From Myxococcota bacterium (GTDB taxonomy: Bacteria; Myxococcota_A; UBA796; GCA-2862545): a stretch of 42,084 nt of DNA. The notes below the pieces were generated by a model. It worked only from the letters and a program-made list of their open reading frames with translations. It had not been told where the DNA came from and made no database searches. A program made the position numbers and the translations under genes. Location of the stretch: the NCBI GenBank assembly GCA_039208735.1, contig JBCCQY010000071.1, forward strand, positions 1 through 42,084, written 5' to 3'. Below, piece by piece: positions 23,677-41,338 of this stretch; the stretch's first letter is position 1; every line of letters begins with the position of its first letter.

Positions 23677-23774
23677 CCCCGCAGTTGCTTTCGGCGGCCA
23701 CGGAAAGTAGGAAGACAGCAGGCTTCACGCCATCATGGGCCTGGACCGCAGTGCGGCCGGGATCCGGAGGAAGC

Positions 23775-24188
23775 ATGCAACGAACCATGTTCAAGTCGAA
23801 GATCCACCGTGCGACGGTGACCCACGCCGACCTCCATTACGAGGGCAGCGTGACCATCGACCGCGACCTACTCGATGCGGCCGACATGCTCGAACACGAG
23901 TGGGTGGCCGTATGGAACGTGACCAACGGCGAACGGATCGAGACCTACACGCTCGCGGGCGAGCGCGGCAGCGGAATCATCTGCCTCAACGGAGCCGCTG
24001 CGCACCGGTTTACCCCCGGTGACCTGGTGATCATCGCCACCCGCACTCAGCTGCCCGACAAGGAAGCACGGACGTTCGAGCCCACCGTGGTGCTCGTCGA
24101 CAGCGAAAACCGCATTCGAGATTCGCGCTACGTCGAAACGCCTGGGCCAGCGGTCATTCCGCGCATGACGGGCGCCTCGCACCTGTAG
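23775..24188 (+). CDS. panD: Aspartate 1-decarboxylase
   Basis: [29 protein letters not shown] (Gly-Ser autocleavage site), [24 protein letters not shown]. Confidence 0.96.
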
Positions 24189-25041: not shown

Positions 25042-25785
25042 TTGTCCGCCGTCTTTCGCGTCCTCGTGATCTTGGTTCTCACGGGCTGTATACGCGTGTA
25101 TCATCCATTGACGGGGTTGCATGACCCGATCGTCGTGGACCCGAGGTACCCGAACTTCGAGGGCCTGGGCGTCACCGTCCGGTGCCTGCCCCGGGATGAT
25201 CTCAACGACCGTGCGAAAGCCAGCGAAGAAGCCAGCACCCTCTGCGACCGGGTCAGCCAGCTCTTCGAAACGCAAGGGGCGGTGGTCACCGTGTCCGACG
25301 TCGTCGACATCGATGACTTCGATGAAGAGGAAGAGGAAGAGGAAGAGGAGGCCCCTCTCGACGCCGACCTCGTGATGGAGATTCGGTCTCGGCTGGTCCA
25401 CAAACGGCAGCCCTTCTTCACGATTCCCTTCTTTCTTGCTTCCTTTACCGTGCTGCCGGTGGTCGAGGAGCGCACGTTCGCCATCGATGTGGCGGTACGC
25501 GATGGCAATGGCTTCTTGCTGCTCCAAGACAGCTACCAAGGCCGGGTGGTGTCCCGTGGCGGCATTGGGCCTTGGCTCTTCAACAAGTTGGGCGATCTGG
25601 GTCGGGCCAAAGAAGACCGGTTGACCGTGGCTGCGTCGCGCCGGCGGTTCTCTGAGGATCTGTACCGTCAGCTTTCACAGCAGCTGTTTGACGCGATGTT
25701 GCGTTGGCGGGTGGTGCGCGAAGGCAATCGGCCAGCGCCTTCGGCGGTACTGAGTCCCGTGCAGACCACGGGAGAGACCCCATGA
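25042..25785 (+). CDS. Lipoprotein; gene 1 of the motor-associated operon
   Basis: Lipobox LVLTGC; poly-Glu tract; hydrophobic hairpin FFTIPFFLASFTVLP; ATGA coupling to the next gene. Confidence 0.7.
   Translation: MSAVFRVLVILVLTGCIRVYHPLTGLHDPIVVDPRYPNFEGLGVTVRCLPRDDLNDRAKASEEASTLCDRVSQLFETQGAVVTVSDVVDIDDFDEEEEEEEEEAPLDADLVMEIRSRLVHKRQPFFTIPFFLASFTVLPVVEERTFAIDVAVRDGNGFLLLQDSYQGRVVSRGGIGPWLFNKLGDLGRAKEDRLTVAASRRRFSEDLYRQLSQQLFDAMLRWRVVREGNRPAPSAVLSPVQTTGETP
25324..25350 (+). repeat. (GAAGAG)4.5 in-frame hexamer repeat encoding Glu9
   Basis: Read directly from the sequence. Confidence 0.85.
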
Positions 25786-26417
25786 TTCCGTTGGTGGCGG
25801 CATTCCCGTTCCTCGGGTTCATCGGCAAAGATCCTGCTCCCAGCGTGTTTCGGTCGTCCAAAGCGGCCCGTGAACTCGAGTGTCAGAGGGTCAGCGGGGA
25901 GGTCGGGCGGAGTCGGACTCCGAACGAGATCAAGCCAGACCGTCCCCGTGGGTCCTATGCCGAGCGCGACGTGCTTTACTGTCGGCAGCGCATCCTTCGG
26001 GAAGGGGTGCGGCACCCTCGTGACGAAGCGGTCTTGCGAGGGCTCGAAGAGCATGCCAATGAGGTGGCCTCCCTCGTCGCGTCGATTCGGGCAGATCTTT
26101 CGGACCGCACGTGGCTCGTCGAGTCGTTCTACCCGAGTCCCGCGGTGGGAACGAAGATTGCGTTTGCCACGAAGTCCGCCTTGATGCGTCAAACCCTCAA
26201 GGTGTCGGACCGAGTGCCCCTGCTTTCGGCGACCGACATCGATATTTTCATGCGGATGCCGCCTGACCAGGCGTATCCTGCAGCATGTGAGCGCTGGCAG
26301 TCGACCGGGCAGCTCCGCGACACCGACGTGTTGCTCGCGCAGGTCATTCGAGATCTGCGGGAGACACGCTTGCACACAGGTCTGTGTTTCGACGGCCAGT
26401 GGATGTGGCTCCGATGA
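25782..26417 (+). CDS. Hypothetical exported Cys-containing protein; operon gene 2
   Basis: ATGA overlaps at both ends; hydrophobic N-terminus; four Cys; ends GLCFDGQWMWLR. Confidence 0.7.
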   Translation: MIPLVAAFPFLGFIGKDPAPSVFRSSKAARELECQRVSGEVGRSRTPNEIKPDRPRGSYAERDVLYCRQRILREGVRHPRDEAVLRGLEEHANEVASLVASIRADLSDRTWLVESFYPSPAVGTKIAFATKSALMRQTLKVSDRVPLLSATDIDIFMRMPPDQAYPAACERWQSTGQLRDTDVLLAQVIRDLRETRLHTGLCFDGQWMWLR

Positions 26418-27592
26418 TGGCATTCCTGACTGTATTGGTTGCATGGTGCGGCCTGGCGTGGGCCGGGCCGGCTGAAGAGGCCCAGCTGGCCGAACTCGAC
26501 CGGCTGCGAGGCCGTTCGGCGAACCAGGTTCATCTGGCGGCGTTCGACCTTGTGGACGAAATGATCTACGGGTGGACCCAGGAACCGGTGTTTCCAAAAC
26601 CCACTCCCGTTGTTCTGGCCTCGGTCACCGTCCCAGTGGGTCTCGGCACGGGGTTGCAGGCCCAGCTTGAAAACCACATTTCGTCGGTCTTGCTGTCGCA
26701 TCCGAGTTCAAACGTAAAGCTGGTGCATTGCCCCACCTGCACCCAAGTGCTGGTGCATTCCTCGCCCAACGCGACGGTGGTGACGCGCGGTATCGACAAT
26801 CCCGCGGTGTGGTCCGAAATCGCAACGTCCACCAACCAGCACGCGCTGTTCATCGATGTTGAGGCCGAAGGGACGTTCTTGGTCCTTCGGGCACGCCTCA
26901 CTGCGCTTGAACCCGACCTGCCCATTTTGTGGAGCCGCACGATCACCTCGTCGGCGGATTCACCCGCTTTGCTCCGTAATCCTAGGGCGCTCACCTCTGC
27001 GGCTGAGGCTCGGCAGGAATACATCAATACCCTTCGCGGACGTTCGCCGTTCGCGGTTCCGTTCCGCATGACCGTTCGCGCCTACGCGCAGCCCACCAAC
27101 CGCCAGTCGGTGCCGCCACCGCCGTTCCTCTGGGTTCAAACCGGCATCGAGGTCGGTACAAGCCAGGCGAAGGATTGGACGACCAGCTTGTTGGTTGGCG
27201 CCACGTTCATCCCGCAGGCCTACCAGGGGCTGATGGTTCAGGGGCGGTTGCAGCGGTTGATCACGGGTCGAGCCCGCTCATTGACTCGTCCCGACCTGTA
27301 CGGCTTCTTTGGGGTCTCCCTGATCAGTGTGTGGGGTCCCGCGACGGCGCCGTTCTCGAATGAACGGGTCACTGCCGATGACGTCATTCAGGCTTCGAAC
27401 CTGGCTCCTCCGCGCACGTCGTTCGGCACGTTGCAGCTCGGGGCTGACCTTCGGGTCGGCAACCGCGTGGGGGTGTCCATGTTCGGCGAATGGATTCCCT
27501 CCCTCACCAACTCTCCGAACCTGGGCAGCTTCCTGCGGCTCGGTCCGGTCAGCTTCCAAGGCTTCGGGACTGAGGTGACATTCTGGTTCTGA
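26414..27592 (+). CDS. Exported protein with N-terminal alpha/beta CxxC domain and probable C-terminal outer-membrane beta-barrel; operon gene 3
   Basis: Signal peptide ending AWA|GP; CPTC; alternating amphipathic strands; C-terminal GTEVTFWF (BAM beta-signal-like). Confidence 0.7.
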   Translation: MMAFLTVLVAWCGLAWAGPAEEAQLAELDRLRGRSANQVHLAAFDLVDEMIYGWTQEPVFPKPTPVVLASVTVPVGLGTGLQAQLENHISSVLLSHPSSNVKLVHCPTCTQVLVHSSPNATVVTRGIDNPAVWSEIATSTNQHALFIDVEAEGTFLVLRARLTALEPDLPILWSRTITSSADSPALLRNPRALTSAAEARQEYINTLRGRSPFAVPFRMTVRAYAQPTNRQSVPPPPFLWVQTGIEVGTSQAKDWTTSLLVGATFIPQAYQGLMVQGRLQRLITGRARSLTRPDLYGFFGVSLISVWGPATAPFSNERVTADDVIQASNLAPPRTSFGTLQLGADLRVGNRVGVSMFGEWIPSLTNSPNLGSFLRLGPVSFQGFGTEVTFWF

Positions 27593-27600
27593 TCTTCGCC

Positions 27601-28536
27601 ATGCTCTCGGCGGCCGTCGCGGGCCCGTCTGCGACCACCGAAGCCCTGGATCGGCTTGAGGAAGTGCTCCTCGAACGGATCGAGGAAGGTCGGTTGTCGC
27701 GGGAAGACATGGTGCCGGCCATCGTGGTTAGCACCAAGCCGATCTACGAGGAGTCGAACGGCGGTTTCCAGACTCGGGCGCTCGATTTGCTATCCCAGAC
27801 CCTGGGAGACCGGGGCCTGCGTGTCTGTGAAGCGTGCATGGCGCCCCGGACCTACGCCGAAGACGGCAACCTCGTGCTCCAGACGGGTCCCATCGGTCTA
27901 GACGAGGTGCAGCGCCTTGACGACCAGAACCGTGGCGATGCGCAGCCAGCACGGACCGCCATTTGGGTCGAAGAAACGAAGCGCGGGGTATCGGTTCGGA
28001 TCGTCGACATCGCAACGGCCCGGGTCGTCTTCGCGCAGAACATCGATCCCAATTTCATCGAGTACCGACGCACGCAAAAGCGGTATCGAATGGCCGCGGA
28101 ACTCGAACGTCGGGCACGCCAGGACAGCCTCACGCAGGCGTTTGTGGACGTGGGGCTACTCCCTGACCAGCACGTATCGCTCGACTGGACCGATCAATGG
28201 GGCAAGACCAACAGCAACCTGACCGGCATCACTTTGACGGCCTGGGACCCCCTGGTGGGTCTGGGCGTGGTGCACTACAAGCGGTTGCGATTAGGGGGGG
28301 GCCGCTTCAATCCGCTCATTGGCGGAAAGGTCGTCATCAGCCTGCCCAGCGCACTTTCTCGAGTGGTCGATTCCGGTGACTTCGATCTGACCGACACCCT
28401 TGTCAATGGGGTGGCGGTGGCTCGAATCCCACTTTGGCGCTCTAACTACGGCATTCTTGCTACGGCATCGACCAACGGTCGCGTGACCATTGGGGTGTCG
28501 CTCATGAACATCAGTCTGCTGCCGGTGATCCCATGA
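27601..28536 (+). CDS. Protein with N-terminal CxxC TolB-N/CsgG-like domain and beta-rich C-terminus; operon gene 4 (true start may lie slightly upstream)
   Basis: CEAC; VRIVDIATARVVFAQN motif; amphipathic C-terminal strands; ATGA coupling downstream. Confidence 0.65.
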   Translation: MLSAAVAGPSATTEALDRLEEVLLERIEEGRLSREDMVPAIVVSTKPIYEESNGGFQTRALDLLSQTLGDRGLRVCEACMAPRTYAEDGNLVLQTGPIGLDEVQRLDDQNRGDAQPARTAIWVEETKRGVSVRIVDIATARVVFAQNIDPNFIEYRRTQKRYRMAAELERRARQDSLTQAFVDVGLLPDQHVSLDWTDQWGKTNSNLTGITLTAWDPLVGLGVVHYKRLRLGGGRFNPLIGGKVVISLPSALSRVVDSGDFDLTDTLVNGVAVARIPLWRSNYGILATASTNGRVTIGVSLMNISLLPVIP

Positions 28537-29162
28537 ATGTTCGGCTTCTTCTTCCTTTGTTCTGCGCAGCCTGCGCGGCTCGAAGCTACACCTACTACTT
28601 GATCGAGCCGGCTCCGGCGGTCGACGCGTTGTTCGAAGAGGATGAAGGCACGCAGCTGCGTCCGCTCGGCTTTGGGTCGACCACCGCCATGAAGGTCCGG
28701 TGGAACGACGGAGACGTGCTCACCGAGGTCGAGATCCCGATGCTGGCGAGCGGCCAACGCATCGTCATCGAGCACACCCCGGGGAACAACGACATCGAGA
28801 CGATTCCGATGTCTCGGATCGTTCCCCCACCGCCCACCAATGCCGACCGTACACTCGACGAGGCCTACCGCGATCGCGGTCTGCGCGTCAATGGCGATGC
28901 GGCCGAGGTGAGCATCAGTACGGCCCGAACGCGGATGCAGGAGGCGCTCGCTTCGGGCAACTACGAAATGGCCCTCGAGTGGTGCGAGCTGGTGATCGCC
29001 CGCTATCCGTCCCATCCCGAAACGCTTCGCGCAAAAGGTTCGATCCTTTTGCTTCTTGGCGAGCGGGAGAAGGCGATCGAGGTCTATGAACAAGTTGAGG
29101 AGATCGAGTCGGATCCCGCAGTGCGGAGAAAGCTCGAGGAACTCCAGCGCCAGCAACCGTAA
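28533..29162 (+). CDS. TPR-containing lipoprotein; operon gene 5
   Basis: Lipobox CAAC; C-terminal TPR (GNYEMALEW...YPSH...KGSILLLLGEREKAIEVYEQV). Confidence 0.78.
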   Translation: MNVRLLLPLFCAACAARSYTYYLIEPAPAVDALFEEDEGTQLRPLGFGSTTAMKVRWNDGDVLTEVEIPMLASGQRIVIEHTPGNNDIETIPMSRIVPPPPTNADRTLDEAYRDRGLRVNGDAAEVSISTARTRMQEALASGNYEMALEWCELVIARYPSHPETLRAKGSILLLLGEREKAIEVYEQVEEIESDPAVRRKLEELQRQQP

Positions 29163-29196: not shown

Positions 29197-29919
29197 GTGC
29201 AACTGATTGGACTGCTGCTGCTGGCCTTCGTGGTCTGGTACGGGTTCGGTGAACGGACCGATCAGACCATTTCCGCGTTTGACATGCATGCCTTTGTGGT
29301 CGTGCTTGGCGGTTCGTTGTCGGCCATCATGGTGTCGTCTTCGGTGGCCACCACGTTGCGAACCCTGACCGCCTTGCGGGAAGCGATTCCCGGGCTGGGG
29401 GTCTTAGGACCAGGAAATGATGCGCTAGAGGCGGACCGAGCCCAACTCGTCGAATTGTGGATGGACGGCAAGCGCGCCCAAGCGGTGCAGCTTGCCGAGT
29501 CGAGCCCGTTTCCCGCCATCGCTCGCATGGTGGACCTCGTGCTGAATCGGGCACCCGACGAAACCACGAAGGCGGCATTTACCGAGCTGACCCACCAAGA
29601 GCTGTCCCGTTGGCAGCCCGCCGTCGCGAATTGGGAGCTGCTCTCGAAGCTCGCTCCATCGTTCGGGATGGTTGGTACGATCACTGGGATGATCCAGCTG
29701 TTTCGCACGCTCGGTGAAGATACCAACATGGGGGCGGCCATTTCGCTTGCGCTGCTCGCGACCCTGTATGGGGTTGCGTTTGGCGCTGGGGTGGCGGGGC
29801 CGATCGGCCATTACCTGCGGAGCTTGCTCGACGAGCGGCTCGGGGTACTCGAGCGCTGTGAGCACAGCGTCAATGACCTCATCGCACGGTCCGGCCGCGC
29901 GGCTGCGGCGGGAGCGTAG
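29197..29919 (+). CDS. Flagellar-type MotA/PomA-like stator subunit; operon gene 6
   Basis: VVVLGGSLSAIMVS (MotA TM2), LAPSFGMVGTITGMIQL, ALLATLYG; precedes a MotB-like gene. Confidence 0.88.
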   Translation: MQLIGLLLLAFVVWYGFGERTDQTISAFDMHAFVVVLGGSLSAIMVSSSVATTLRTLTALREAIPGLGVLGPGNDALEADRAQLVELWMDGKRAQAVQLAESSPFPAIARMVDLVLNRAPDETTKAAFTELTHQELSRWQPAVANWELLSKLAPSFGMVGTITGMIQLFRTLGEDTNMGAAISLALLATLYGVAFGAGVAGPIGHYLRSLLDERLGVLERCEHSVNDLIARSGRAAAAGA

Positions 29920-29922
29920 TCG

Positions 29923-30552
29923 ATGCGCCGTCGTAGCTACGTCAGTGACGAAGGCTGGCTGCTCTCGTATGCCGACCTCATCACCAACCTGCTGATCTTC
30001 TTCGCCATGCTCCTTGGAGCAGCCGAGATCAGCCGAACGCGGATGCAGGAAATCGCGCGGGAACTCTCGGGGGAAGAACAGCCCGAAAGCCTCGCTTCGA
30101 TCCAGCAAGCCATCGATGAACGGATCGAGAAGGAAGGCCTGCAAGAGGTCATTTTCACCGATCTCACGGACGAAGGGCTCAAGCTGCAACTCAACTCGGG
30201 CCTGGTGTTCGATGTGGGCAGCGCGATCATTCGATCCGAGCAAGAAGTGGTTCTCGACAGCATGTTGCAGACTTTGGTGCCGTATGGCGACAAGTATGCT
30301 TTTGCGGTGGAAGGCCACACCGACTCCACGCCCTTCGGCAATGGCCAAGCCGAAGGCCGCACCAACTGGGAGCTGTCCGCCGACCGAGCGAATGCCGTTC
30401 GGTATCGCCTCGAGCAGGTGGGTGTGCAGCGTGGCCGAATCCGGGTGGAAGGTTTCGCCGACACCGTGTCGCTCCCCGAGGACCAACTCGAGGGGCTGAC
30501 GGAAGAGGAGCGCCTCGCCCGCCACCGCCGCGTCGTCGTGAGGGTGTTCTGA
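29923..30552 (+). CDS. MotB-like stator subunit with OmpA-type peptidoglycan-binding domain; operon gene 7
   Basis: WLLSYADLITNLLIFFAML (conserved ion-binding Asp), VEGHTD, NWELSADRANAV, HRRVVVRV. Confidence 0.92.
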   Translation: MRRRSYVSDEGWLLSYADLITNLLIFFAMLLGAAEISRTRMQEIARELSGEEQPESLASIQQAIDERIEKEGLQEVIFTDLTDEGLKLQLNSGLVFDVGSAIIRSEQEVVLDSMLQTLVPYGDKYAFAVEGHTDSTPFGNGQAEGRTNWELSADRANAVRYRLEQVGVQRGRIRVEGFADTVSLPEDQLEGLTEEERLARHRRVVVRVF

Positions 30553-32351
30553 TGGGGTTTGTGCGCAACCTTTTGTTGGCGGTCGTGAGCCTGGGAGCCG
30601 CGTCTTCGGCGTTGGCCCAGGTGCCGGACCGCCAGATCCCGCCCACCGTATTGACGGAATTGCGGCTTCTCGCGAATCGGTTCGATCTCGCATTGGCGGC
30701 GGACTGCGATGAAACGCGGTGCTTTTCGAAGGGCTGCACCTACATCGCGCACTCGGTGGCCGATCAGCCGAAGTCCACCTCGTTGCCCGGGCTTGGTGGC
30801 GAGCCGGGTCCCGGTAGCGTCGACGCGCAGGAATACCTGACGAGTGCCCGGTGTGCGTTCGCGTATGAAGAAAATGTCTCGGCAGAAGATGCCAAGGCAC
30901 TCGCGCGACGGCTTCGGGCAAAACTGTCGTCCGGTTGGACCTCGGTGAGCGTGACGACCCAGCGCCTCGAGCCGTTGCCGGATTACCTGCAAAAGCCCCC
31001 TCCGCCAGAGCCTGACCCCGAGGAGCAAGCCCTCGAAGAGGAGCCCCTCGAAGAGGAACTTCCGGCCGAAGAAGCGTGGTCCTTCGTGACCGCGGGCCGG
31101 GAACTCTGGACGAGCCTCTTACCGCATTTCTACTGGATGATCGGCCTGGTATTGGCCACCATGGCGGGTGCCATTCTCATTTGGGCGTGGCGGCGGGTGG
31201 GGCAGGCCTCGCTCGAGGAGCAGATGCTGCTCGCCGAGATGGGTCGTGGAGAGAGCGGGCCCAGCGAGGCCATGGTCTCTGAGACGTCCGACGAGGAAAC
31301 GTTCGTCGCCGAGCAAGAGGCGGCTTGGACCGAGCGCATGGAAGGCCTCGACCCGGCCAAGCCGGATCCAGAGATCCAGGCGCTGCTCCGAGAATTGCTC
31401 CGTTCGCGCGACCTTCCGCTCCTCGCCAAGGCGGTGCTGCGGTTCCCCCAACTGTCGCCCCTGATGCCGGCCGGCGGTGGGTTTGCGACGGCCAAGCTCG
31501 AACTCGCAGACTTCCTCAAAACGGTGGACGACGAGACCCTGCCGTCGGACGCGGAGTTCTACCGCAACCTCAACCGCAACGCGCTGTCCGCGGCGGTGGC
31601 CTCCCAAAGTGATGCCCAGATCGTAGTGAACCTGCGTGAAGAATTCGGCCCCTCGGGCTTGGCCACGTTGATGGCCCAGCTCGAGGACCGGCCGGCAGCA
31701 TTGCTCTTTGCTCTGGCGCCGACGGATGCGCAGCACGAAATCGTGCGGCTGTTGCCGACCCAGCGCGTGGCCACGATGGCCGAGATGCTCATGCGAAGCA
31801 ATCGCATGAGCCCGAGCGAGACCGAGCACCTCTTTGAGGTGTTGGCGGCGGCGCGGGGCGAAGTCACCATTCCCGGCGCCTCCAAGTCCAAGGCCATTAC
31901 CGACCTTGGTGAGGAGTTCGACGCGGCAGGCGCGTTGTCGGTGCTGCTCGAAAGCGTCAATCCGGCACGTCGCACGACCCTCTTCCGCAGCGCCCTGGAG
32001 CGGTCGCACGGCAGCTTCCCGGCCTGGTACCGTGGCATTCTCGTTGCCGACATGCTGTTCGAGTTGCCGGTGGAGACCCGCGCTGACCTTTTGCTCGAAC
32101 TCGACATCGAACCGCTGGCCGCGTGGATGTCGTTGCTCGACGGGGAGGCACAGTCCCGCCTGCTTGCCGGCATGCCACGGGCGCTGGTTTCTTCGGTGCA
32201 GTCGGTGTCTGAATTGGGGTCGCGGTCCCGTCAGGTCGCGCTCGCCGACCGGGGGCGTCGTGACCTTGCCCGGGCCTTCCAGCGGCAGCTCCAGCGGGCC
32301 CAAATCCCGTTTGAACGCGTGGTGGTGCCTGCAGGTGGGGGCGGACCGTGA
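30552..32351 (+). CDS. Single-pass membrane protein: signal peptide, FliF-RBM3-like periplasmic domain, TM, FliG middle/C-terminal-like cytoplasmic region; operon gene 8
   Basis: Signal ending ALA|Q; TM FYWMIGLVLATMAGAILIWAW (~aa 193-213); FliG-M-like LMAQLEDRPAALLFALAPTDAQHEIVRLLP; FliG-C-like ILVADMLFELPVETRADLLLELDIEPLAAWMSLLDGEAQSRLLAGMPR. Confidence 0.65.
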   Translation: MGFVRNLLLAVVSLGAASSALAQVPDRQIPPTVLTELRLLANRFDLALAADCDETRCFSKGCTYIAHSVADQPKSTSLPGLGGEPGPGSVDAQEYLTSARCAFAYEENVSAEDAKALARRLRAKLSSGWTSVSVTTQRLEPLPDYLQKPPPPEPDPEEQALEEEPLEEELPAEEAWSFVTAGRELWTSLLPHFYWMIGLVLATMAGAILIWAWRRVGQASLEEQMLLAEMGRGESGPSEAMVSETSDEETFVAEQEAAWTERMEGLDPAKPDPEIQALLRELLRSRDLPLLAKAVLRFPQLSPLMPAGGGFATAKLELADFLKTVDDETLPSDAEFYRNLNRNALSAAVASQSDAQIVVNLREEFGPSGLATLMAQLEDRPAALLFALAPTDAQHEIVRLLPTQRVATMAEMLMRSNRMSPSETEHLFEVLAAARGEVTIPGASKSKAITDLGEEFDAAGALSVLLESVNPARRTTLFRSALERSHGSFPAWYRGILVADMLFELPVETRADLLLELDIEPLAAWMSLLDGEAQSRLLAGMPRALVSSVQSVSELGSRSRQVALADRGRRDLARAFQRQLQRAQIPFERVVVPAGGGGP

Positions 32352-34561
32352 TCTTGGGTTTCGGACGTTGGGTCCTCGCCATACTCCTCGTCGTCTCGGC
32401 GATGAGCTGCGGCAAGGTTCGGCTCTTCGATGTCGGGGCGGAGTTCGTCCAGGCCGACATCACGTGGTTCGAAGGCGAAGAAACCTTGTTCGTCTTCTAC
32501 CAAGTCAACGCACTGCAGGGTCTCAACCAGCTTTCGGCGGTCGAGATCTCCTGGGATGGCCCCGAGCCGAGGGACTGGACGCCCATAGAAGACCTGCCCA
32601 AGGTCCACACCCACATTCCCGCAGATTGTGGCGTGACGTCGCTTTGCGGCAGCACGAGCCTGCATGTGCCGGGGGAGCCCACCCGCGTGCGCCTTCGTCT
32701 GCGCTACCACCCCGATGCGGAAAGCAACGTCTCCGCCCAGCCGCTCTACAATGTGGTGGGCGATGGCCCTCCGCCAGCGAGCCGAAGCTTCCTCGTCTAC
32801 GGCATCTTCGATGAGCGCAATGTGCTCATCCAGTGGCGCGGACGGCACCAGTTTCCCACGATCCGCAACCAGCGCGCGGAGCGCCTCGGGTTGAGGCGAG
32901 ACTTCACCGTTCGCGACCAGCGCTACGGCATCGTAGGGACTGCGCCCTCGAACAACCCCTACGGCTACGGCGAACCGTGCCCCGATGGGTTCACCGCGAC
33001 CGACATCCCCGAGCTGACCTCGAATCGTCGGGCGGTCTTCAACCTCGAGGAATTGCCCCAGGCCTCGTTTGGGGCCTCGGCGGTGTGTGCGGAAGTGTCG
33101 GTGCGCGATGCGACTGGGTCCTATACGACCGATGCGTATGCGAGGAAGAATCCCGAAATTCGATCGGCATTTCCGCGCTACGAGAATCCCGTTCGCGAAG
33201 CGACGGTGCTCCCGTTCTTCTTGGCTCCCTGTGGACGCATCATCTCGACCGAACATGAGGAGATGCAACGCCAGCGACTGCAAATGCCCGGCGTTCCGGT
33301 GACATGCACCGACGATGCGCTGAGTCCCGCGTTCACGTTCCAGTTGGCGGTGGCGTTTCTCGATGCCATCGAGACCGCGCGGCCGGCTGGCAACGACATG
33401 GTCCTCGCCATTGGCATTCATCAGGATGACGACGCCGTCAGTGCCGCGGTCGAGGAGGCCTTGGCGACGTTTTTGCCCGAAGAACGCCATCGCACCTCGC
33501 CCCGCGTTGCGGGCGCGTTTGTGTTCGATAGCGAAGCGCGGCGCATCACGATGGAGGGCGTCGACAAGACGACGCTGTGGTGCCCCTCTCTGATCGGCAA
33601 TGCCGGATTCAGCGCTTCCGCGGTTTCCTGTCCGAAACTGCCGGATGACCCCGCCTTATTGCTGGGCCCAATCGCCATTGACACGCTGCCCATCTTGCCC
33701 GACCGCGAGGAATATCTCGATTTCATCGATGACTTCTCGGTTCGGCTCGCCGGGACCATCAACGAGTTGACCTACCGGGTGCCGGAGTTCACACCCACCA
33801 CGGACCACCGAGACCTCGGTGATTTTGGCGTGGTGACCTTCGCGAACGGCGAAGCCATCACCGCCGATGGCGATGACGCTTTTTCGTACTGCGCAACCAA
33901 GGAACCCCTTCCGTTCGTCGTTCGCTCCGCGTTGATGGAGAGTCCCCAGCTCGCCTACCTGCTCGCGGATTACTGCGTGTCGACGACGCCAACGCCGGGC
34001 GACAGCGGGCGAGGGGGCGGCGAAGATACCGAGCCGCAGCCCGTCGGCGGTCCAACGCCGGGTGTGGGGCCTGACGACTACACGGGCTACGGCAAGGGCA
34101 GCTCCATCTGTGACGCCATCTTGGCCGGGCTCTTGCCCATCGATGCGCTGCCCGACTGGCACTCGGTGTTTGGGGAGTCCCGCTACGAGATCGGCCTGTT
34201 CTGGGAATTTCCCTTCCTGCTGCAGCTCGAGTATGAAGCGCGCACCGCGGCCTCCGTTACGGCCTTCGGCGTGACGATTCCGTTTGGGTTTGGCAGCGAG
34301 GACCAAAGCTTTTTCGGTTCTCGACTCTGGCGGGATCGAGAGGAGATTCCCAAGAAAAAGAAAGCGTTCAAGCCTGACCCCTACGACATCGACTCCATTC
34401 TGCAGCACTGTCGCCGCTTCTGTGACCATCCCACCCTTGACGGGGCGGGAGTCTACAACGTGCTCGCGCCGTTCCGGGCCACCTACGCTCGGGCTTGCTA
34501 TCGCCCGCGCTTCCCCGACCCGAACGACGAAAACTTCGATGGATTCCCTCTTGATCCCTAG
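32348..34561 (+). CDS. Large Cys-rich lipoprotein; operon gene 9
   Basis: GTGA coupling; lipobox AMSC; many Cys; Pro/Gly/Thr low-complexity insert. Confidence 0.72.
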   Translation: MILGFGRWVLAILLVVSAMSCGKVRLFDVGAEFVQADITWFEGEETLFVFYQVNALQGLNQLSAVEISWDGPEPRDWTPIEDLPKVHTHIPADCGVTSLCGSTSLHVPGEPTRVRLRLRYHPDAESNVSAQPLYNVVGDGPPPASRSFLVYGIFDERNVLIQWRGRHQFPTIRNQRAERLGLRRDFTVRDQRYGIVGTAPSNNPYGYGEPCPDGFTATDIPELTSNRRAVFNLEELPQASFGASAVCAEVSVRDATGSYTTDAYARKNPEIRSAFPRYENPVREATVLPFFLAPCGRIISTEHEEMQRQRLQMPGVPVTCTDDALSPAFTFQLAVAFLDAIETARPAGNDMVLAIGIHQDDDAVSAAVEEALATFLPEERHRTSPRVAGAFVFDSEARRITMEGVDKTTLWCPSLIGNAGFSASAVSCPKLPDDPALLLGPIAIDTLPILPDREEYLDFIDDFSVRLAGTINELTYRVPEFTPTTDHRDLGDFGVVTFANGEAITADGDDAFSYCATKEPLPFVVRSALMESPQLAYLLADYCVSTTPTPGDSGRGGGEDTEPQPVGGPTPGVGPDDYTGYGKGSSICDAILAGLLPIDALPDWHSVFGESRYEIGLFWEFPFLLQLEYEARTAASVTAFGVTIPFGFGSEDQSFFGSRLWRDREEIPKKKKAFKPDPYDIDSILQHCRRFCDHPTLDGAGVYNVLAPFRATYARACYRPRFPDPNDENFDGFPLDP

Positions 34562-35369
34562 TCTCGCCATGGTGTGGCTCGGTGCGGCCTGGGCCCAGGA
34601 CGCCGAGCCGGTTGAACCCGTCGAAACGTCCGAGCCGGCTCCGAGCCCCGAGGCTTCGGACGAAGACCCGTTGTCTCGCTACAAAACGCCTTTTCAGGTG
34701 CTCGCGAACCGCACCATCGGGACGGTGTCGTCGAAGCTCGCCTTCAATTGGCGACGGACGAAGATTCAAGTGGGAGGAACGGGGAGCTTCCTCTTCGAAC
34801 TCAACACGTTCAATTCGGCCCGGATCGGGGCATTGATCCGTCGCCCGACGAATAGCGTGATGATCGAGTTCGGTGTTTCGTACACCCGGGTTTGGGACTC
34901 CGAAAGCAGCCGTCAGCTTGCGATGACCGCGTTTCGTCAACCCGGTCGACCGAGTCGCCTCGAACTCGAGACCCAGGTGGCCATACCGCTTGCCGAAGGC
35001 GTGGTGACTGCCATGCCACGATGGTTTCCTTCGGCCCAGCTGGTCTTCAATGCGACGCTTGGTTTCCGCTACTCGATCTATCCCACCGGCTACGCGGAAC
35101 TCCGACCCGGACAGGTCGCCGCGGCCCTCTTCCAGCCGGCGTTGAGCGAGGCCGAACTCGCCAATCTCGAAGAGGCTCGTCTCGACGCGATGGCGGTGGA
35201 CCCCGCGCGCTATGGCATCACGGCCGGCTTTACCAACGATATCTACTTTGAACGCGGCATCTTCGTTTCGCCACGGGTGCAATTCGCCGTGCCTGCATTG
35301 GCGTTCGTGACCAACAGCAGCCTTCCGTTCTGGGTGGATGTGAGCCTGGCCGTCGGCGTGGCGCTCTGA
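34539..35369 (+). CDS. Probable outer-membrane beta-barrel protein; operon gene 10
   Basis: Signal ending AWA|Q, acidic/Pro linker, amphipathic strands (IQVGGTGSF, IEFGVSYT, FNATLGFRYS), C-terminal WVDVSLAVGVAL. Confidence 0.65.
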   Translation: MDSLLIPSLAMVWLGAAWAQDAEPVEPVETSEPAPSPEASDEDPLSRYKTPFQVLANRTIGTVSSKLAFNWRRTKIQVGGTGSFLFELNTFNSARIGALIRRPTNSVMIEFGVSYTRVWDSESSRQLAMTAFRQPGRPSRLELETQVAIPLAEGVVTAMPRWFPSAQLVFNATLGFRYSIYPTGYAELRPGQVAAALFQPALSEAELANLEEARLDAMAVDPARYGITAGFTNDIYFERGIFVSPRVQFAVPALAFVTNSSLPFWVDVSLAVGVAL

Positions 35370-37258
35370 TGTGGTGGCTCGTCGCTTCGGCGTTGGCTGG
35401 GGATCCGACTGGGCTCCCCACCGATCAGACGCTCGTGTATTACAACGCCCGGCTCGCGTTGCGCGAGGGGGACCCGCTGACCGCGGCCAAGTTCTGGTTC
35501 CTGCGCAACGCCATCGAAGACGAAACGGGTCGCGTTTCCGAGCACGACCCGGATTTCGGTTCGGTCACGTGGGCAGCGCTTGGCGACCTCGGCATTTGCC
35601 CAGATGGGCAGCCGACCGACGAAGAAGGGTCAGGGCTTTGGCCGTTGTCCCTGCACAACTGGGTCGTACGGAACCGCAACCGACGCTCCATTCCCAAGCC
35701 CCCCAACCCCTACCGTGCGTTCGATGTGGGCCGGCAGGCCCGGTACATCTCCATCGAAGACGTCCTTTCGGCTGACGAGATGCGGACCATTTCGCTGGTT
35801 CGCGGCCGGTGCTTGCGACCTCGCCTTTCGTTGCTCGACGCCGGAGAGACCCTGCAAGCCAAGTTGACGGACCGCGCGGTGGCGGCCCGTTTGCTACGTC
35901 ATTTGTTGGAGCAAGGCCGATCCACGATGGACCGAGACCGCGTGCGAGGGGTGGCGGCCATCGATGCGCGCCTCTTCGATCTCGATCTCAAGATCACCGA
36001 GCTTGCCGCTCGGGAGGCGCGCAAGAAGGCTCGAAAACAGGCGTTGACGGCGCGTCGAAGAGGTCTCTCTCGTGAGTCGGTCTCCGTGGCCGTCGAAGAG
36101 GCGCCCAAGTTTGCGTTCCGGAATTCAAGAGATGCCAAGCTGATCTTGCGACAGTCTCGCGATTGGCCTGTTTCGGAATGGATGACGCTTTCGTCAGAAC
36201 GGAGGCGGTTTCTGTATGACAAGGCGCGAAGCTACGTGCAGGACCCCGAGGCGTTCGATGGCCTTGCGTTGGGAATCATCGATGCCTTGATCGAGCGGGG
36301 CGAAGGGGCGGACGTCGCGCTGTGGATCCCACGCTACGCGGCCGGCCTTGAGCCCATCTGGTCGGGGGAACGGGGGCGTCGCCTCCTCGCCCTTGATGAC
36401 GAAAGCGGCTTTCGGGAGCGGTCGGTGGTGGCGCTGCATCGAGGGGTGCGCTTCCTCGAGCAGGGCCTGATGCCGGAGGCGCTGACCGCTTTTGCATTCT
36501 CGCTCCAGAATGCTGCGCAGTCGCAGATCGATGACGAGGTTCAAAGCCTGTCATTGCGATGGATGTCGTACGTGGCGTCCCAGTTCGAGTTGACCGACGA
36601 TCTTTTGGCAACGCTCGAGGAACTCGTTCCGCGTCGCGAGTACACGGTGATTCTCGAGGACCTCATGTGGAGCGCGGCGTTCCGCGCGGACCGCAGGTCG
36701 TTCGATCGGGGGCGACGTCGGCAACCGGGGCGAGGAGCCCTCGTTCGACGCATGGACCTGCTACTGCCGCTGGCAATGGGCGACGTACCGCGGTTCACCG
36801 CGGTGATTCGGCAACGGCTCGAGGAGTCCCCCAGCGAGACCATTCGGTTCCTCGACCAATTCGTGCAACGGCTCGAACTCGAAGACAGCGGGCTGCGAGC
36901 GGCCCACGTCGAGACGCTCACCCGCATTCGGACGATGCTCGAACCGATTGCCGATCCGCAGGGAGACGGCCGATCCCGCCGCCGCGCCGAGGCGTTGCTG
37001 GACCGGACCCTTTCGATCATCGATGGCGTAGGGGGACTCGGGGATGCGGCGTCGAGTCGTGACCGGGCGCGCGACCTCGACCCCTCGGGCACGGTGTTCG
37101 CGGGAAGCGTCCGCTTGGCGCCTTCCGATCCGTTGCCCTGGCCGTTCCGCATCGATTCCGTGTCGGCGCCCTCGATTTTCCAGCCGTTGAAACTGCGGCC
37201 TGTCGAGTGGCAAGATCCCGATGGGAGCTGGGTGTTTGGCTGGAGTATCGAAGGATGA
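35369..37258 (+). CDS. Large exported alpha-helical (TPR-like) protein; operon gene 11
   Basis: TGATG coupling; short signal MWWLVASALA|G; TPR-like YYNARLALREGDPLTAAKFW and LHRGVRFLEQGLMPEALTAF. Confidence 0.68.
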   Translation: MWWLVASALAGDPTGLPTDQTLVYYNARLALREGDPLTAAKFWFLRNAIEDETGRVSEHDPDFGSVTWAALGDLGICPDGQPTDEEGSGLWPLSLHNWVVRNRNRRSIPKPPNPYRAFDVGRQARYISIEDVLSADEMRTISLVRGRCLRPRLSLLDAGETLQAKLTDRAVAARLLRHLLEQGRSTMDRDRVRGVAAIDARLFDLDLKITELAAREARKKARKQALTARRRGLSRESVSVAVEEAPKFAFRNSRDAKLILRQSRDWPVSEWMTLSSERRRFLYDKARSYVQDPEAFDGLALGIIDALIERGEGADVALWIPRYAAGLEPIWSGERGRRLLALDDESGFRERSVVALHRGVRFLEQGLMPEALTAFAFSLQNAAQSQIDDEVQSLSLRWMSYVASQFELTDDLLATLEELVPRREYTVILEDLMWSAAFRADRRSFDRGRRRQPGRGALVRRMDLLLPLAMGDVPRFTAVIRQRLEESPSETIRFLDQFVQRLELEDSGLRAAHVETLTRIRTMLEPIADPQGDGRSRRRAEALLDRTLSIIDGVGGLGDAASSRDRARDLDPSGTVFAGSVRLAPSDPLPWPFRIDSVSAPSIFQPLKLRPVEWQDPDGSWVFGWSIEG

Positions 37259-38046
37259 AGGCATCGGCGGCCAAGCAGAAGGCTGCGGCCAAGCTGGCCC
37301 AGCTCGAACAACGACGGCAGGCCCAGTCCCAGGTGGCCGCCCAGAAGCGGGCAGCACTCGAGCGACGCCAGCAGGCCGAGGTCAGCAAGCTCGAACGTCG
37401 GCAACAGTCGCAGGCTGAGGAACTCGAACGGCGCCAGAAGTCGCAGGCCCAGGCCATCACGGCCAAGCGGGTGGCGCTCGAGCGACAGGTCGCCGAGCGG
37501 AAAGCCGCGCGCCCAAAGGAACGTAAGGGCGACCGGATTTGGCGTTGGATCGCCCTCATCCTGGCCATCCTACTCCTGCTCTTGCTCTTCCGTGAGTGTG
37601 AGGAAGCGCCCGAACTTGAGCCCGAAGGTGTGGGGACCGTGGGGCCTGCGTTGGCCGTCGAAGTGGTGTCCGATCCGGCGCCTGTCGTTGTCGAGCCGCC
37701 TCCACCTCGCGTGGTGCGTCGCGACCGCCCCAATCTCGTTCCGCCCCCACCGACGCCGCCGAACTGGCTCGTGGCCTTCCGCATGCAGGTGTCTGCCCGC
37801 AGCCCTCGGCTCGCGGAGTGCTTTGAAGGCATGGGCCGGCCTGGTCAAATCAAATGGACGGCCTCGGTCGAGCCGACCACCGGGCGAGTGGGCGACCACG
37901 TCATCGAACCGCTGTTGTTCACCGGGGAATTGTCGAAGCCCGAGCGGTCGTGCATCGAGACGGTTCTGGCAGAGCCTGACTATCGGCTTCCCCCTGTAGA
38001 CCCCGATTCGATGCCCTCTCGCGTAAGCCTGGTGCTCGAGTTCTAA
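37255..38046 (+). CDS. TonB/TolA/GltG-like protein with coiled-coil repeats, TM, Pro-rich linker and AgmX/PglI-type C-terminal domain; operon gene 12
   Basis: ATGA coupling; LERRQ repeats; TM WIALILAILLLLLLF; PPPP linker; RLAECFE...GQIKWTASVEPTTGRV...SCIETVL...RVSLVLEF. Confidence 0.7.
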   Translation: MKASAAKQKAAAKLAQLEQRRQAQSQVAAQKRAALERRQQAEVSKLERRQQSQAEELERRQKSQAQAITAKRVALERQVAERKAARPKERKGDRIWRWIALILAILLLLLLFRECEEAPELEPEGVGTVGPALAVEVVSDPAPVVVEPPPPRVVRRDRPNLVPPPPTPPNWLVAFRMQVSARSPRLAECFEGMGRPGQIKWTASVEPTTGRVGDHVIEPLLFTGELSKPERSCIETVLAEPDYRLPPVDPDSMPSRVSLVLEF

Positions 38047-38621
38047 AGCGCTCCTGTGGCCCAGCGGTCGTAGCAATCGAGCAAGCAGCTACGAATGTTG
38101 CCGTCATGCTTGGCCCACAACGCGTCGTAGTCGAGCGCCCGGGGGCCTCCCAGGGCCTCCACGATCTGCTGCAGGACGGTGGAATCCGTCGTGTGCCGGT
38201 GAAGTACGGGCAGGCCGCAGTCGTGATGGCTGGTGACGAGCAAAGGACCCCGGCGGACGCTCCGTAGCAGCCTCCATAGCGGACGAGGCAACTGCTCGAC
38301 ACCGTCCACCGTCACCAAGGTCCTGTCTCGAGGGGCGGCAAGAACCGCGCCCCACGCGTTCCAGGGCGGCCAGGTGTGAGGGTGGAACGCGAGGCGCACG
38401 ATCCGCCAACCGAGCCGAAGGTAGTGACGTTCCAGATCTTCGCGAAGCGTGGTCTTTCCCGTACCGTGGGGGCCCACCAGTGCAGCGCGGTGATGGAGTG
38501 CCGCCAAGCGCTTGGCGAAGGCGGTGAGCGCGGACCCGGTGGCGTAGCGGATGCTGGGGTGGCGCTGGACCCGAAAGGGGTTGTCGGCAGGTCGACGCTT
38601 AGAGTTGGACTTCGTGGCCAT
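38043..38621 (-). CDS. Small P-loop NTPase (AAA/DnaA-Hda-like)
   Basis: NPF motif, Walker A GPHGTGKTT, Walker B VTVDGVEQ, GNIRSCLLDCYD. Confidence 0.75.
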   Translation of the reverse strand: MATKSNSKRRPADNPFRVQRHPSIRYATGSALTAFAKRLAALHHRAALVGPHGTGKTTLREDLERHYLRLGWRIVRLAFHPHTWPPWNAWGAVLAAPRDRTLVTVDGVEQLPRPLWRLLRSVRRGPLLVTSHHDCGLPVLHRHTTDSTVLQQIVEALGGPRALDYDALWAKHDGNIRSCLLDCYDRWATGAL

Positions 38622-38946
38622 CGGGCCCAATCACGATGTCCGCGTGGGCGAAGCCGTCGCCCGGCTGGACTTCGGCCTCGATCGTCCACTGCAGGGTGAT
38701 GAGCTGGCCCGAAAAACTCGGGGGCGTCTGAGGGGCCGTGAACGTCACGGTCGTGACGGACTCCGCTGGTGACAGGGCCTGTTCAGACGCCAAGGCGACA
38801 TCGGTGTCTCCCCGGCCCGAGGTTCGCCAAAGCAAACGGACGGTGACTGCCTCGGGCTCCGGATCGCGGGTCCAGGTCACCGTGACGTCGATGGTGTCGC
38901 CCGGTGCGTAGTGCAGCTTCGAGGGTTGAACCAGCACTTCACGCAT
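38599..38946 (-). CDS. Small arrestin-N/Ig-like beta-sandwich protein
   Basis: YAPGDTI, VRLLWRTSGRGDTD, PPSFSGQLITLQWTIEA; overlaps its neighbours. Confidence 0.65.
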   Translation of the reverse strand: MREVLVQPSKLHYAPGDTIDVTVTWTRDPEPEAVTVRLLWRTSGRGDTDVALASEQALSPAESVTTVTFTAPQTPPSFSGQLITLQWTIEAEVQPGDGFAHADIVIGPDGHEVQL

Positions 38947-40060
38947 TGGCCGACTCGGGAAACACCGTGAGAGGGAAGTGGCTTTCCACGTCGGGCCAGT
39001 TCAACAGCACGCCTGCGACTTCGATGCGCCACACGATGGCGTTGTGTCCGCCGTCGAAGGTGGGCGCCGCGTCGGCCGGGAGCGCCACGGTGGTCGAGCC
39101 CCGCGCGATCTGCATCCCGTCCGTCGTATTGAGGAGTTCTTGGGTGAAGAAGACGTGGGTTTCGGTGACCGAATCCGTACCTCGCTGGTACGTTGCCCGT
39201 TCTTCGCCGACCAGGGTGAGCGTCAGCCGACGCAGGCGCGCCGCATTCCCTTGCATCACCCAGGACACGGTGGTGTTGCGCCCCAGCACCGGGTCGCCAT
39301 CCGGCAACGAGAGCACGGGATGGGGGTTGAACATGCGGAGCAGCTCGTAGCCCGAGCCCACCAGCAGCGAGATGCCGCTAATCACAAACACGCCGAGAAA
39401 ACTGAACAAACAGGCGTCCATGTCGGACCAGAACGCCAGCACGGCGGCCCAGGTGATGGCGTTCCAGATCACTGCGAGCATGGCGATGCCGACAAAGCGC
39501 GCTCGCGGCGTGATCTTGGGGTTGAGCTGAACCAGGCTGGGGTCGCGATACAGCGGCAGCCCGCCCCGTGAAGCCAACGGGGAGCTGCGTTGTCGTGAGG
39601 TGAGCCACGGTACGAGGGGCACGAGCAAGAACGGCACCCCTATGAGTCCCCAGAGCAGGTACATCCCCGCATCGCGGTTCATGACGGCCTGCGAGGGATT
39701 GGACGGATTCACGAAGACCGTCGCGGCGCTGCCCACTGGATGAGCATTCGCAATCTGCTGTTTGCCCCGGCGACCCGAACTCGAGCCCACCCGGAAGTCA
39801 TAGTCCTCGCTGACGTAGGATTGCCCGGCGTAGCGATAGGCGCAGCGTACGTCGATGGCGTACGTTTCGCCGTCCGAACTGGTGACCTCGCTGTGGACCA
39901 CCTCGCACGGCACGGCTTCCCAGGTCTGGGCTCGCAAGATCTGCCAAGCGGGCCGGAGGGTCAGCCCACCCACCACCAGAAAACCGACGACCCCGAACAC
40001 GCCGAAAAACAGAACGGCACAGCCGGACGACGGTTTGGGAGCGAGAAGAGAGCGGCTCAC
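38939..40060 (-). CDS. DUF3592 membrane protein with C-terminal arrestin-like domain
   Basis: TM, then WEAVPCEVVHSEV...YRYAGQSY...VGSAATVFVNPSNPSQAV (DUF3592 pattern), further TMs, PTFDGGHNAIVWRIEV. Confidence 0.8.
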   Translation of the reverse strand: MSRSLLAPKPSSGCAVLFFGVFGVVGFLVVGGLTLRPAWQILRAQTWEAVPCEVVHSEVTSSDGETYAIDVRCAYRYAGQSYVSEDYDFRVGSSSGRRGKQQIANAHPVGSAATVFVNPSNPSQAVMNRDAGMYLLWGLIGVPFLLVPLVPWLTSRQRSSPLASRGGLPLYRDPSLVQLNPKITPRARFVGIAMLAVIWNAITWAAVLAFWSDMDACLFSFLGVFVISGISLLVGSGYELLRMFNPHPVLSLPDGDPVLGRNTTVSWVMQGNAARLRRLTLTLVGEERATYQRGTDSVTETHVFFTQELLNTTDGMQIARGSTTVALPADAAPTFDGGHNAIVWRIEVAGVLLNWPDVESHFPLTVFPESANA

Positions 40061-40076
40061 GCTGCCTGGTATTCCA

Positions 40077-41204
40077 CTACGGCGTGGCGGTTTCGGACGA
40101 CGTCACCGGCGTTTCCGTCAGAAAGGTCTCGTAGAACGGAGCACAATCGCGGCGAATCCGATCTTCGTCGAGGTTGAATTTCGACAAGTCGTATTTGTGC
40201 TTGCTCTTGTAGGCCCGCTGTTTTTCAGCCTGAGCGGCGATCGCATCGCGTTGGGCCTGCGTGGGCTCGTGGCCCATGAAGGTGTGCATCTCCTCCATCA
40301 TGCCGTCGAAATCCTTCATCATCCGGTCATAGTGGACGAGGAAAACGCGATCGCGGTCGATGCTGCCGTCGTTCCACTCCTCGGTGAACCGAAGCATGAG
40401 GGTGACCAGGCCGCCGTAGAGCCGCTCGAGCCAGCGTTCACGCGTGGCCTCCGGCAGGTTCCAAAATCCAAACGCGTTGTCGAGAACGCCCGAGACGAGG
40501 CTCATGCCGGATGGGATCGTTGAGAGCGGGTCGCGCACCATGTAGAGCACGCGCGCATCGGGGAAGCGGTTGAGGAATGAGGGCAGCCGTACCGAAAGGC
40601 TGAACAGCTTGGCCACGACCACGTCGGAACGGTGCCCCACGAGCGAACGCCGCCACACCTCTTCGAGCCAGTCATAGTCGCGTTTGGTGGTGTCGCGGTT
40701 CTTGACGTCGAACGAATCCAGGTGGTCGACGTCGTCGAAGGCAAGGAAGAAGCCGTAGAGGAAGAATCCATCGAAGTATCGGAACAGGATCGCCACATCG
40801 TCAGTTTCGACACTGGTAAGGCCCGTGTCGTGGGCCGCGGTCTTGTGGTACCGCGTTGGGGCGACGGCTTCGAGGAGCGGCAAGAACGGCTTGAGCAGGG
40901 CCTGGATCGTGAGTGAGGCGTACAGCATGCGGTAAATTTCGTTGCCCGCACCGTACGACTGATCCGACAGGAATCGCTGAAGGAAGGTGGTGCCGGTTCG
41001 CGGATTTCCGACCAGCACGATCGGTCGTTCGACCTTGGTTCGCGCAAGCTTGGGGAAAAAGATTCGATCCAACCCCTGCCCGATGCCGACGACCAATCGG
41101 ATCAGATTCCACATGAGACGCGCGGCCCATGGCAAAAGAAACACGCCAAACGTGCGGCGTGCTACTCGGTAAGCCAGGTTCATCCGGCCAGAAATGGTCT
41201 CCAT
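40077..41204 (-). CDS. Sulfotransferase family protein
   Basis: 5'-PSB motif GNPRTGTTFL and 3'-PB motif FPDARVLYMVRDP..TIPS; GGAG RBS before ATG 41204. Confidence 0.88.
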   Translation of the reverse strand: METISGRMNLAYRVARRTFGVFLLPWAARLMWNLIRLVVGIGQGLDRIFFPKLARTKVERPIVLVGNPRTGTTFLQRFLSDQSYGAGNEIYRMLYASLTIQALLKPFLPLLEAVAPTRYHKTAAHDTGLTSVETDDVAILFRYFDGFFLYGFFLAFDDVDHLDSFDVKNRDTTKRDYDWLEEVWRRSLVGHRSDVVVAKLFSLSVRLPSFLNRFPDARVLYMVRDPLSTIPSGMSLVSGVLDNAFGFWNLPEATRERWLERLYGGLVTLMLRFTEEWNDGSIDRDRVFLVHYDRMMKDFDGMMEEMHTFMGHEPTQAQRDAIAAQAEKQRAYKSKHKYDLSKFNLDEDRIRRDCAPFYETFLTETPVTSSETATP

Positions 41205-41338
41205 CAACGTCTCCGCTACGCAGGGGGCCGGTTCTACCCGGTCCCGGGCCTTAGCTCGATGTAGCCGACTGTGCTTCGACTCACGCGCTCAGTTGGTGAG
41301 GGCCTTGTCAGCTATCGAGGGGAGGAGTAGGAGAACGC

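Follow-up and report, generated by a model that had tools for sequence, protein, structure and literature searches.

Fusion protein X and its homology to FliG and FliF

Twelve genes, all on the forward strand, occupy positions 25042 to 38046 of contig JBCCQY010000071.1 from a Myxococcota bacterium, adjoining one another with gaps of −34 to +34 bases; the window referred to below is the whole stretch of 42,084 nucleotides. Within this block lie genes for a MotA-type stator subunit (29197–29919), a MotB-type stator subunit (29923–30552) and a 599-residue protein, here called fusion protein X, the product of the open reading frame at 30552–32351, whose ATG overlaps the stop codon of motB. An earlier note, made from the DNA alone, had described this frame as an apparent natural fusion of the FliF ring domain to FliG directly downstream of motB. 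The frame, its position and all the motifs quoted in that note are present in the translation, and what was observed is a real, confirmed conserved gene.

Among 8000 candidates scored, 368 relatives of X were found at E≤0.001; their source names, where given, are mostly those of hypothetical proteins from Myxococcota. Two alignments were used, one of the best 120 of these 368 (the first row being the query; 50–76% identity across 94–100% of the length) and one of 67 sequences that includes distant relatives.

X starts with a predicted cleavable signal peptide (residues 1–22; 30552–30617), as the note had proposed; by a simple hydropathy rule, a signal-peptide-like start is present in 114 of the 120 aligned sequences. 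The periplasmic domain that follows (residues 28–142; 30633–30977) has an α-β-β-α-β arrangement resembling the third ring-building motif (RBM3) of FliF, with a long hairpin (57–70/93–105), a flexible SLPG loop and four cysteines. Cys52, Cys57, Cys62 and Cys101, together with Pro79-Gly80, are invariant in both alignments (120/120 and 67/67). Hydropathy places a single transmembrane helix at about residues 192–213 (31125–31190), followed by R214 (120/120) and R215 (117/120). The claim of one transmembrane helix after the signal holds for 90 of the 120, which have one hydrophobic segment; another 21 have two, two have three and seven have none. The remainder of the chain consists of a FliF-like C-terminal tail (about 252–285; 31305–31406), located with hhalign, and a FliG-like region (286–591; 31407–32324) with N, M and C domains, in which the EHPQ motif, the Gly-Gly pair and the canonical torque charges of FliG are absent.

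X alone has no FliG or FliF match in Pfam, NCBIfam or the PDB sequences. Its sole Pfam match, to MgtE_N, is marginal (26.2 bits, with the cut-off at 25.9), and the scores of the curated FliG families (TIGR00207, Pfam FliG_C/M) are not reached. The homology is visible only via deep profiles and a structure model. In hhalign, the 67-sequence profile matches FliG with P 97.5–97.7 over 295 columns (residues 276–588 of X against 23–322), and VIA aligned residues 286–597 to FliG 5–331. The N, M and C domains of FliG thereby follow in order and are homologous over their length, and the FliG-C fold is present. The register proposed by eye was reproduced by hhalign, with LEDRPAALL in place of the EHPQT segment, FDAAGALSVLL in place of GGVxxxAEIL, ILVADML in place of MFVFEDL, and the terminal helix of X in place of GPVRLSEVE. 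The Pfam search recommended in the note gave a divided answer among 66 relatives: none matches YscJ_FliF, while seven pass the FliG_C cut-off. Used in the other direction, the X profile recovers true FliG from genomes; ten of the 12 recovered proteins tested pass TIGR00207, which is also the best match of the other two.

The Gly-Gly hinge of FliG (G214/G215 in Vibrio) has a role in switching; its position in X is taken by Phe-Asp (105/120 and 111/120). Loss of EHPQ is borne out, EHPQ(R) being found in 0/120 and 0/67 sequences of X versus 27/34 canonical FliG proteins. EHPQ is the FliM-binding motif, according to the available part of PMC6680979.

The FliG-binding tail that follows the last transmembrane helix of FliF has a counterpart in X. 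Residues 252–289 match the last 37 residues of FliF with a score of 36.1, compared with a maximum of 17.8 from 25 column shuffles and with 14.1–24.7 for 11 control profiles, and two other subfamily profiles match the same tail (51.5 and 37.5; shuffle maxima near 18). Since the helical match is short and shuffling destroys helical periodicity, we consider it good but not final. For the periplasmic domain, the parallel with RBM3 survives in part. A direct profile match to FliF was not obtained (14.6 versus 16.0 for shuffles), but a chain of profiles, each step with 12 shuffles, leads from X to the type 2 fusions described below (27.3 versus 14.4), from these to a family of about 800 residues (91.2 versus 16.6), and from there to FliF RBM3 (31.6 versus 16.0), the last link being weak (P 30). 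The first transmembrane helix, RBM1 and RBM2 of FliF are not found in X, whose sole periplasmic domain spans about 115 residues in the model, and neither X nor the 66 relatives match YscJ_FliF. X is truly homologous to FliG, carries a FliF tail and probably contains an RBM3, and by defining motifs is a member of neither family; the interpretation given in the note is supported in part.

Stator genes, distribution and independence from the flagellum

The block's MotA (Pfam MotA_ExbB) has the cytoplasmic torque-interface helices, and its MotB has the ion-binding Asp18, a plug and an OmpA-like domain (Pfam MotB_plug and OmpA above cut-off), as expected of flagellar-type stators; both score below the curated cut-offs of the NCBIfam flagellar models. 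The MotA profile matches all ten MotA/PomA chains in the PDB and no ExbB or TolQ. P154, T161, P202 and R/K93 are found in 75/75 sequences and E101 in 65/75; K/R92, R93 and E101 lie near the positions of Arg90/Glu98, where the register shifts between HMMER and MAFFT. Asp18 of MotB is present in 76 of 77 rows, the remaining row having a gap, and in these alignments the ion-channel residues are intact. In a tree of 61 MotA rows, types 1 and 2 fall outside the 30 flagellar MotAs, yet with them against the five ExbB/TolQ-type proteins of the source genome. The motor of the block is accordingly not of the TolQR type found in the Agl-Glt system. Given the long branches and narrow sampling, no order of events is claimed.

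Of 134 loci found, 80 were kept. All 12 genes are present in 47 of these, and order and strand are constant throughout. In 32 of the other 33, our reading of the coordinates places the missing genes at or beyond the end of the retrieved sequence; one locus (L026:4229-10381) lacks the four upstream block genes although 4.4 kb of sequence is available there. The flanks contain no recurring family except protein kinases, in 11 loci. Pfam and NCBIfam identified no export apparatus, switch, rod, hook or filament genes among the 12, and the block has no FliM/FliN gene.

Related blocks occur in several versions. A sample of 301 genomes of the phylum yielded full-length X (type 1) in 20. Type 2 is a permuted block in records named mostly Bradymonadales, with 18 genomes assigned by match pattern and neighbours checked in seven. 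A five-gene core (barrel, TPR lipoprotein, MotA, MotB and a fusion of 839–922 residues) occurs in L220 and L229; compared with such modules, the 12-gene version has seven further conserved genes, a four-cysteine periplasmic domain and a more eroded FliG.

Flagellar genes were surveyed in 49 distinct genomes (53 records, four duplicates counted once), in which carriers had been picked for X and related genomes are not independent. Myxobacteria are usually regarded as non-flagellated. Both flagellin and full-length FliF are present in 22 of 30 type-1 carriers, while eight lack both, some of these being incomplete assemblies; 14 of 18 type-2 genomes lack flagellin. The non-flagellated type-1 carriers include the single-contig records of Archangium minus and A. 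lansingense, in which the blocks are intact, and in Archangium minus the block motA is the only full-length MotA match. The source genome of the window encodes separate fliF, fliG, flagellins, motA, motB, fliM/fliN and flhA on other contigs. The block is independent of the flagellum.

The flagellar system of the source genome (G000:C81:5900-26400, C28:50500-54200 and C13:56183-58138) appears complete, with FliF, FliG, FliM/N, MotAB, FlhA and six flagellin-domain matches, and many relatives in its order likewise carry a flagellar system. At one locus (L095; G094:C1, about 1782600-1793200) the whole block is pseudogenised, all 12 genes having stops or frameshifts. That genome, a single contig of 1.8 Mb from which flagellin, FliF and FliM/N matches are likewise absent, looks like a reduced genome with recent loss of the block system; the joint decay of all 12 genes fits one unit lost together. 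Several loci (L002-L004, L014, L051 and others) come from records titled Enterobacterales, Klebsiella or Bifidobacterium, their blocks being 50–70% identical to those of Myxococcota. In the MotA tree these loci group with Myxococcota, and the bins, taken from metagenomes, have probably been mislabelled.

A candidate rotary envelope machine

The fusion, with a MotA and MotB of its own, belongs to a fixed block of 12 genes found in non-flagellated bacteria too, and therefore the block probably encodes a second rotary envelope machine. Inferring the ring, its rotation and direction, its partners and its output, we favor, on balance, a one-direction, ion-driven rotor working on an outer-membrane complex of the block. 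X would be a one-chain rotor in which the rear half of FliF (RBM3, second transmembrane helix and tail) is joined in frame to the whole of FliG. Many copies would assemble into a ring, with an S-ring-like periplasmic collar and a cytoplasmic FliG ring. MotA5B2 units of the block, held on peptidoglycan by the OmpA-like domain of MotB, would rotate the FliG ring as ions pass via Asp18. The direction would be fixed, because EHPQ, the Gly-Gly hinge and a FliM/FliN gene are missing. Export gate, rod, hook and filament are all missing, and the load would be a complex of the periplasm and outer membrane encoded by the remaining nine genes (barrels, lipoproteins, TPR proteins and possibly a TonB-like protein). 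The output would most likely be mechanical work, done at the outer membrane of these surface-living predators, for example to power a complex for surface contact or transport. It is a more tentative proposal, to which we give slightly less than even credence, that a complete, unswitchable FliF-FliG ring with dedicated stators, turning an outer-membrane complex with neither secretion system nor filament, represents a further class of ion-driven envelope machine, a rotor-stator module without the type III export core that exists in several old subtypes in predatory bacteria.

The likeness to the flagellar core (FliF MS-ring, FliG and MotA5B2/PomA5B2) extends to the FliG N, M and C domains, the FliF-type tail and the probable RBM-type domain of X, the four-transmembrane MotA with torque helices, and the MotB with Asp, plug and OmpA-like domain. 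In contrast to that core, X is one chain with a cleavable signal replacing the first transmembrane helix, no RBM1 or RBM2, a short collar with invariant cysteines, and neither EHPQ, Gly-Gly nor canonical torque charges; the block is devoid of FliM/N, export, rod and filament genes and occurs also in non-flagellated genomes. In laboratory fusions of Salmonella and Vibrio, the C-terminus of FliF was joined in frame to the N-terminus of FliG (PMC11481574, available part). Those fusions keep the full FliF and either work inside a flagellum or were engineered, whereas X is natural and conserved and has lost half of FliF. SpoIIIAG and SctJ, also ring-building-motif proteins, are unlike X neither fused to FliG nor linked to stators, and SpoIIIAG is not among the matches listed. 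The Glt complex comprises barrels, TPR proteins and lipoproteins. Like the Agl-Glt and Ton/Tol systems, the block pairs an ion motor of the 5:2 type with barrels of the outer membrane, TPR proteins, lipoproteins and possibly a TonB/AgmX-like protein. It differs in that its motor is of the MotAB type, not the TolQR or AglRQS type (the AglRQS motor is described in the available part of PMC13104615), and in having a FliG ring protein, which is missing from those systems.

The main alternative is that X is a static scaffold derived from FliF and FliG, which gathers MotAB units that energise a TonB-like or other partner, as in ExbBD and AglRQS, without any turning of the ring. We regard this as rather unlikely, while giving it weight, since some observations count against rotation. 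The column of Arg281, whose numbering, like that of Asp288/Asp289, is presumably carried onto X correctly by motif, holds Ser, Ala or Thr in 120/120 sequences, and no acid is among the four commonest residues at the columns of Asp288/Asp289, so that the canonical torque charges are lost. A possibly TonB/AgmX-C-like protein closes the block, its type-2 counterpart matching AgmX/PglI-C at P 93.6. Orphan fusions of 780–825 residues have no adjacent motAB (L221-L223, L227, L230), and a fusion can therefore persist without a linked stator. However, MotA keeps its flagellar-type cytoplasmic helices with R/K93 and E101, and X has conserved arginine or other basic residues near the columns in question (546, 558, 560 and 569). 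Among distant relatives, Arg/Lys is kept at the Arg281 position in 15/24, and the type 2 fusions have Glu at the Asp289 position in 7/7. The TonB-like gene is missing from the five-gene L220 and L229, and the copy in the window has no significant match to AgmX/PglI-C (12.0 versus a shuffle maximum of 15.8).

A convergent origin of the FliF likeness, in which X would be a FliG homologue anchored in the membrane, with a small α/β domain unrelated to FliF and no MS-like ring, seems improbable. In fold comparisons, the resemblance of the structure model to RBM3 is equalled by that to CDF C-terminal, KH-II and OsmC domains, and the lack of YscJ_FliF matches and the weak last link of the profile chain point the same way. 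Against convergence, the periplasmic domain, transmembrane helix, FliF tail and FliG follow the order of FliF, profiles of three separate families each match the tail of FliF, and the chain matches fall on RBM3. Atlas neighbours of 480–720 residues contain FliG domains, and in two of these neighbours 22% and 55% of members also have YscJ_FliF_C (PF08345).

We find it very improbable that the block encodes an accessory or second motor of the flagellum that borrows export, rod and filament parts of the main system. Every motor part is a flagellar homologue, and most type-1 genomes, the source genome among them, have flagellin; but intact blocks are found in genomes without flagellin or full-length FliF, most type-2 genomes lack flagellin, X is without RBM1/RBM2 and EHPQ, and the block MotA falls, on long branches, outside the clade of flagellar MotAs sampled. 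A Zorya-like anti-phage sensor on a MotAB-type motor is also very improbable: MotB matches ZorB models (E 4e-14) and the distribution is patchy, but the other 11 of the 12 proteins have no PADLOC match, MotA giving none to ZorA; flagellar MotB models give MotB a higher score, and neither a conserved nuclease or helicase gene in or beside the block nor a plasmid match for it was found.

The preferred reading is a rotor driven by the block's own stators. The parts are known and the system is undescribed; no description of it was found in the literature searched, in so far as the sources were available. In the same literature and to the same extent, pairing of a FliG rotor with a MotAB stator is described only for the flagellum, and stators with plug and OmpA domain are treated as flagellar (PMC12505986, available part). 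The available text of a preprint (10.1101/2024.12.05.626484) asks what role rotor proteins play in non-motile species, to which the block offers a concrete candidate answer. With it one can also test if a rotor and stator are able to function in the absence of the type III export core, a question that bears on the origin of the flagellar motor, and X, MotA and MotB offer a minimal three-protein motor for reconstitution. Deletion and cryo-tomography are feasible because cultured non-flagellated carriers exist (Archangium and Hyalangium for type 1, Lujinxingia for type 2).

Other genes of the block and related loci

The block opens with a conserved predicted lipoprotein (25042–25785) and a conserved cysteine-containing protein (25782–26417), neither assigned to a family. 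The core gene at 26384–27592 encodes a predicted outer-membrane protein that ends in Phe, with an LpoB/CsgG-like domain and a β-barrel suggested by Atlas leads; it matches its type-2 counterpart at P 94.7. Its probable paralogue (27601–28536) matches the same type-2 family at P 53.8 and has no Pfam match. The last gene before motA (28533–29162) encodes a TPR protein (Pfam TPR_2) with a lipoprotein-like start, a core component common to the type-2 and five-gene versions (P 97.9 to the type-2 TPR protein). Downstream of X are a large cysteine-rich predicted lipoprotein (32348–34561) and a secreted protein that by eye may be β-barrel-like (34539–35369), both without a family match, and a large helical TPR-like protein (35369–37258; TPR_2 match in 2/41 members). 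The last gene (37255–38046) combines a basic N-terminus, one transmembrane helix, a proline-rich linker and a two-cysteine C-terminal domain; its link to the type-2 counterpart has P 11.

The genes on either side of the block are unremarkable and show no conservation with it: an aspartate decarboxylase lies upstream (23685-24188), and genes for a P-loop protein, a DUF3592 protein and a sulfotransferase lie downstream on the other strand (38043-41207).

The phylum to which G311 belongs has matches at E≤1e-15 in 64 of 104 genomes; by our count, 22 of these matches start from the N-terminal domain. Among the regions fetched, those of G400 and G370 have the 12 genes in unchanged order and three are rearranged (L224, L225 and L231), being type-1 blocks with motA/motB divergent from the other genes and, in L224, an extra gene for 250 residues after the fusion. 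Three further regions (L233, L234, L235) have more motA/motB pairs, with flagellar genes and a FliG fusion undetected in the sequence fetched. The orphan FliG fusions, a widespread type (L221:7260-9641, L222:7429-9810, L223:8426-10846, L227:7415-9892 and L230:8555-10900), are membrane-anchored with two RBM-like repeats; the genes beside them are conserved and housekeeping-like. Such a fusion seems to be present in about 40 further genomes. After the type-2 fusion, L093:11098-12171 and L096:10705-11628 encode a predicted lipoprotein with a vWA/MIDAS-like motif recognised by eye (DxSxS in L096), without Pfam support. The non-flagellated genome G303 (L232:3375-13383) has a type 1 as well as a type 2 block, the second being followed by a surface-type protein with Ig domains.
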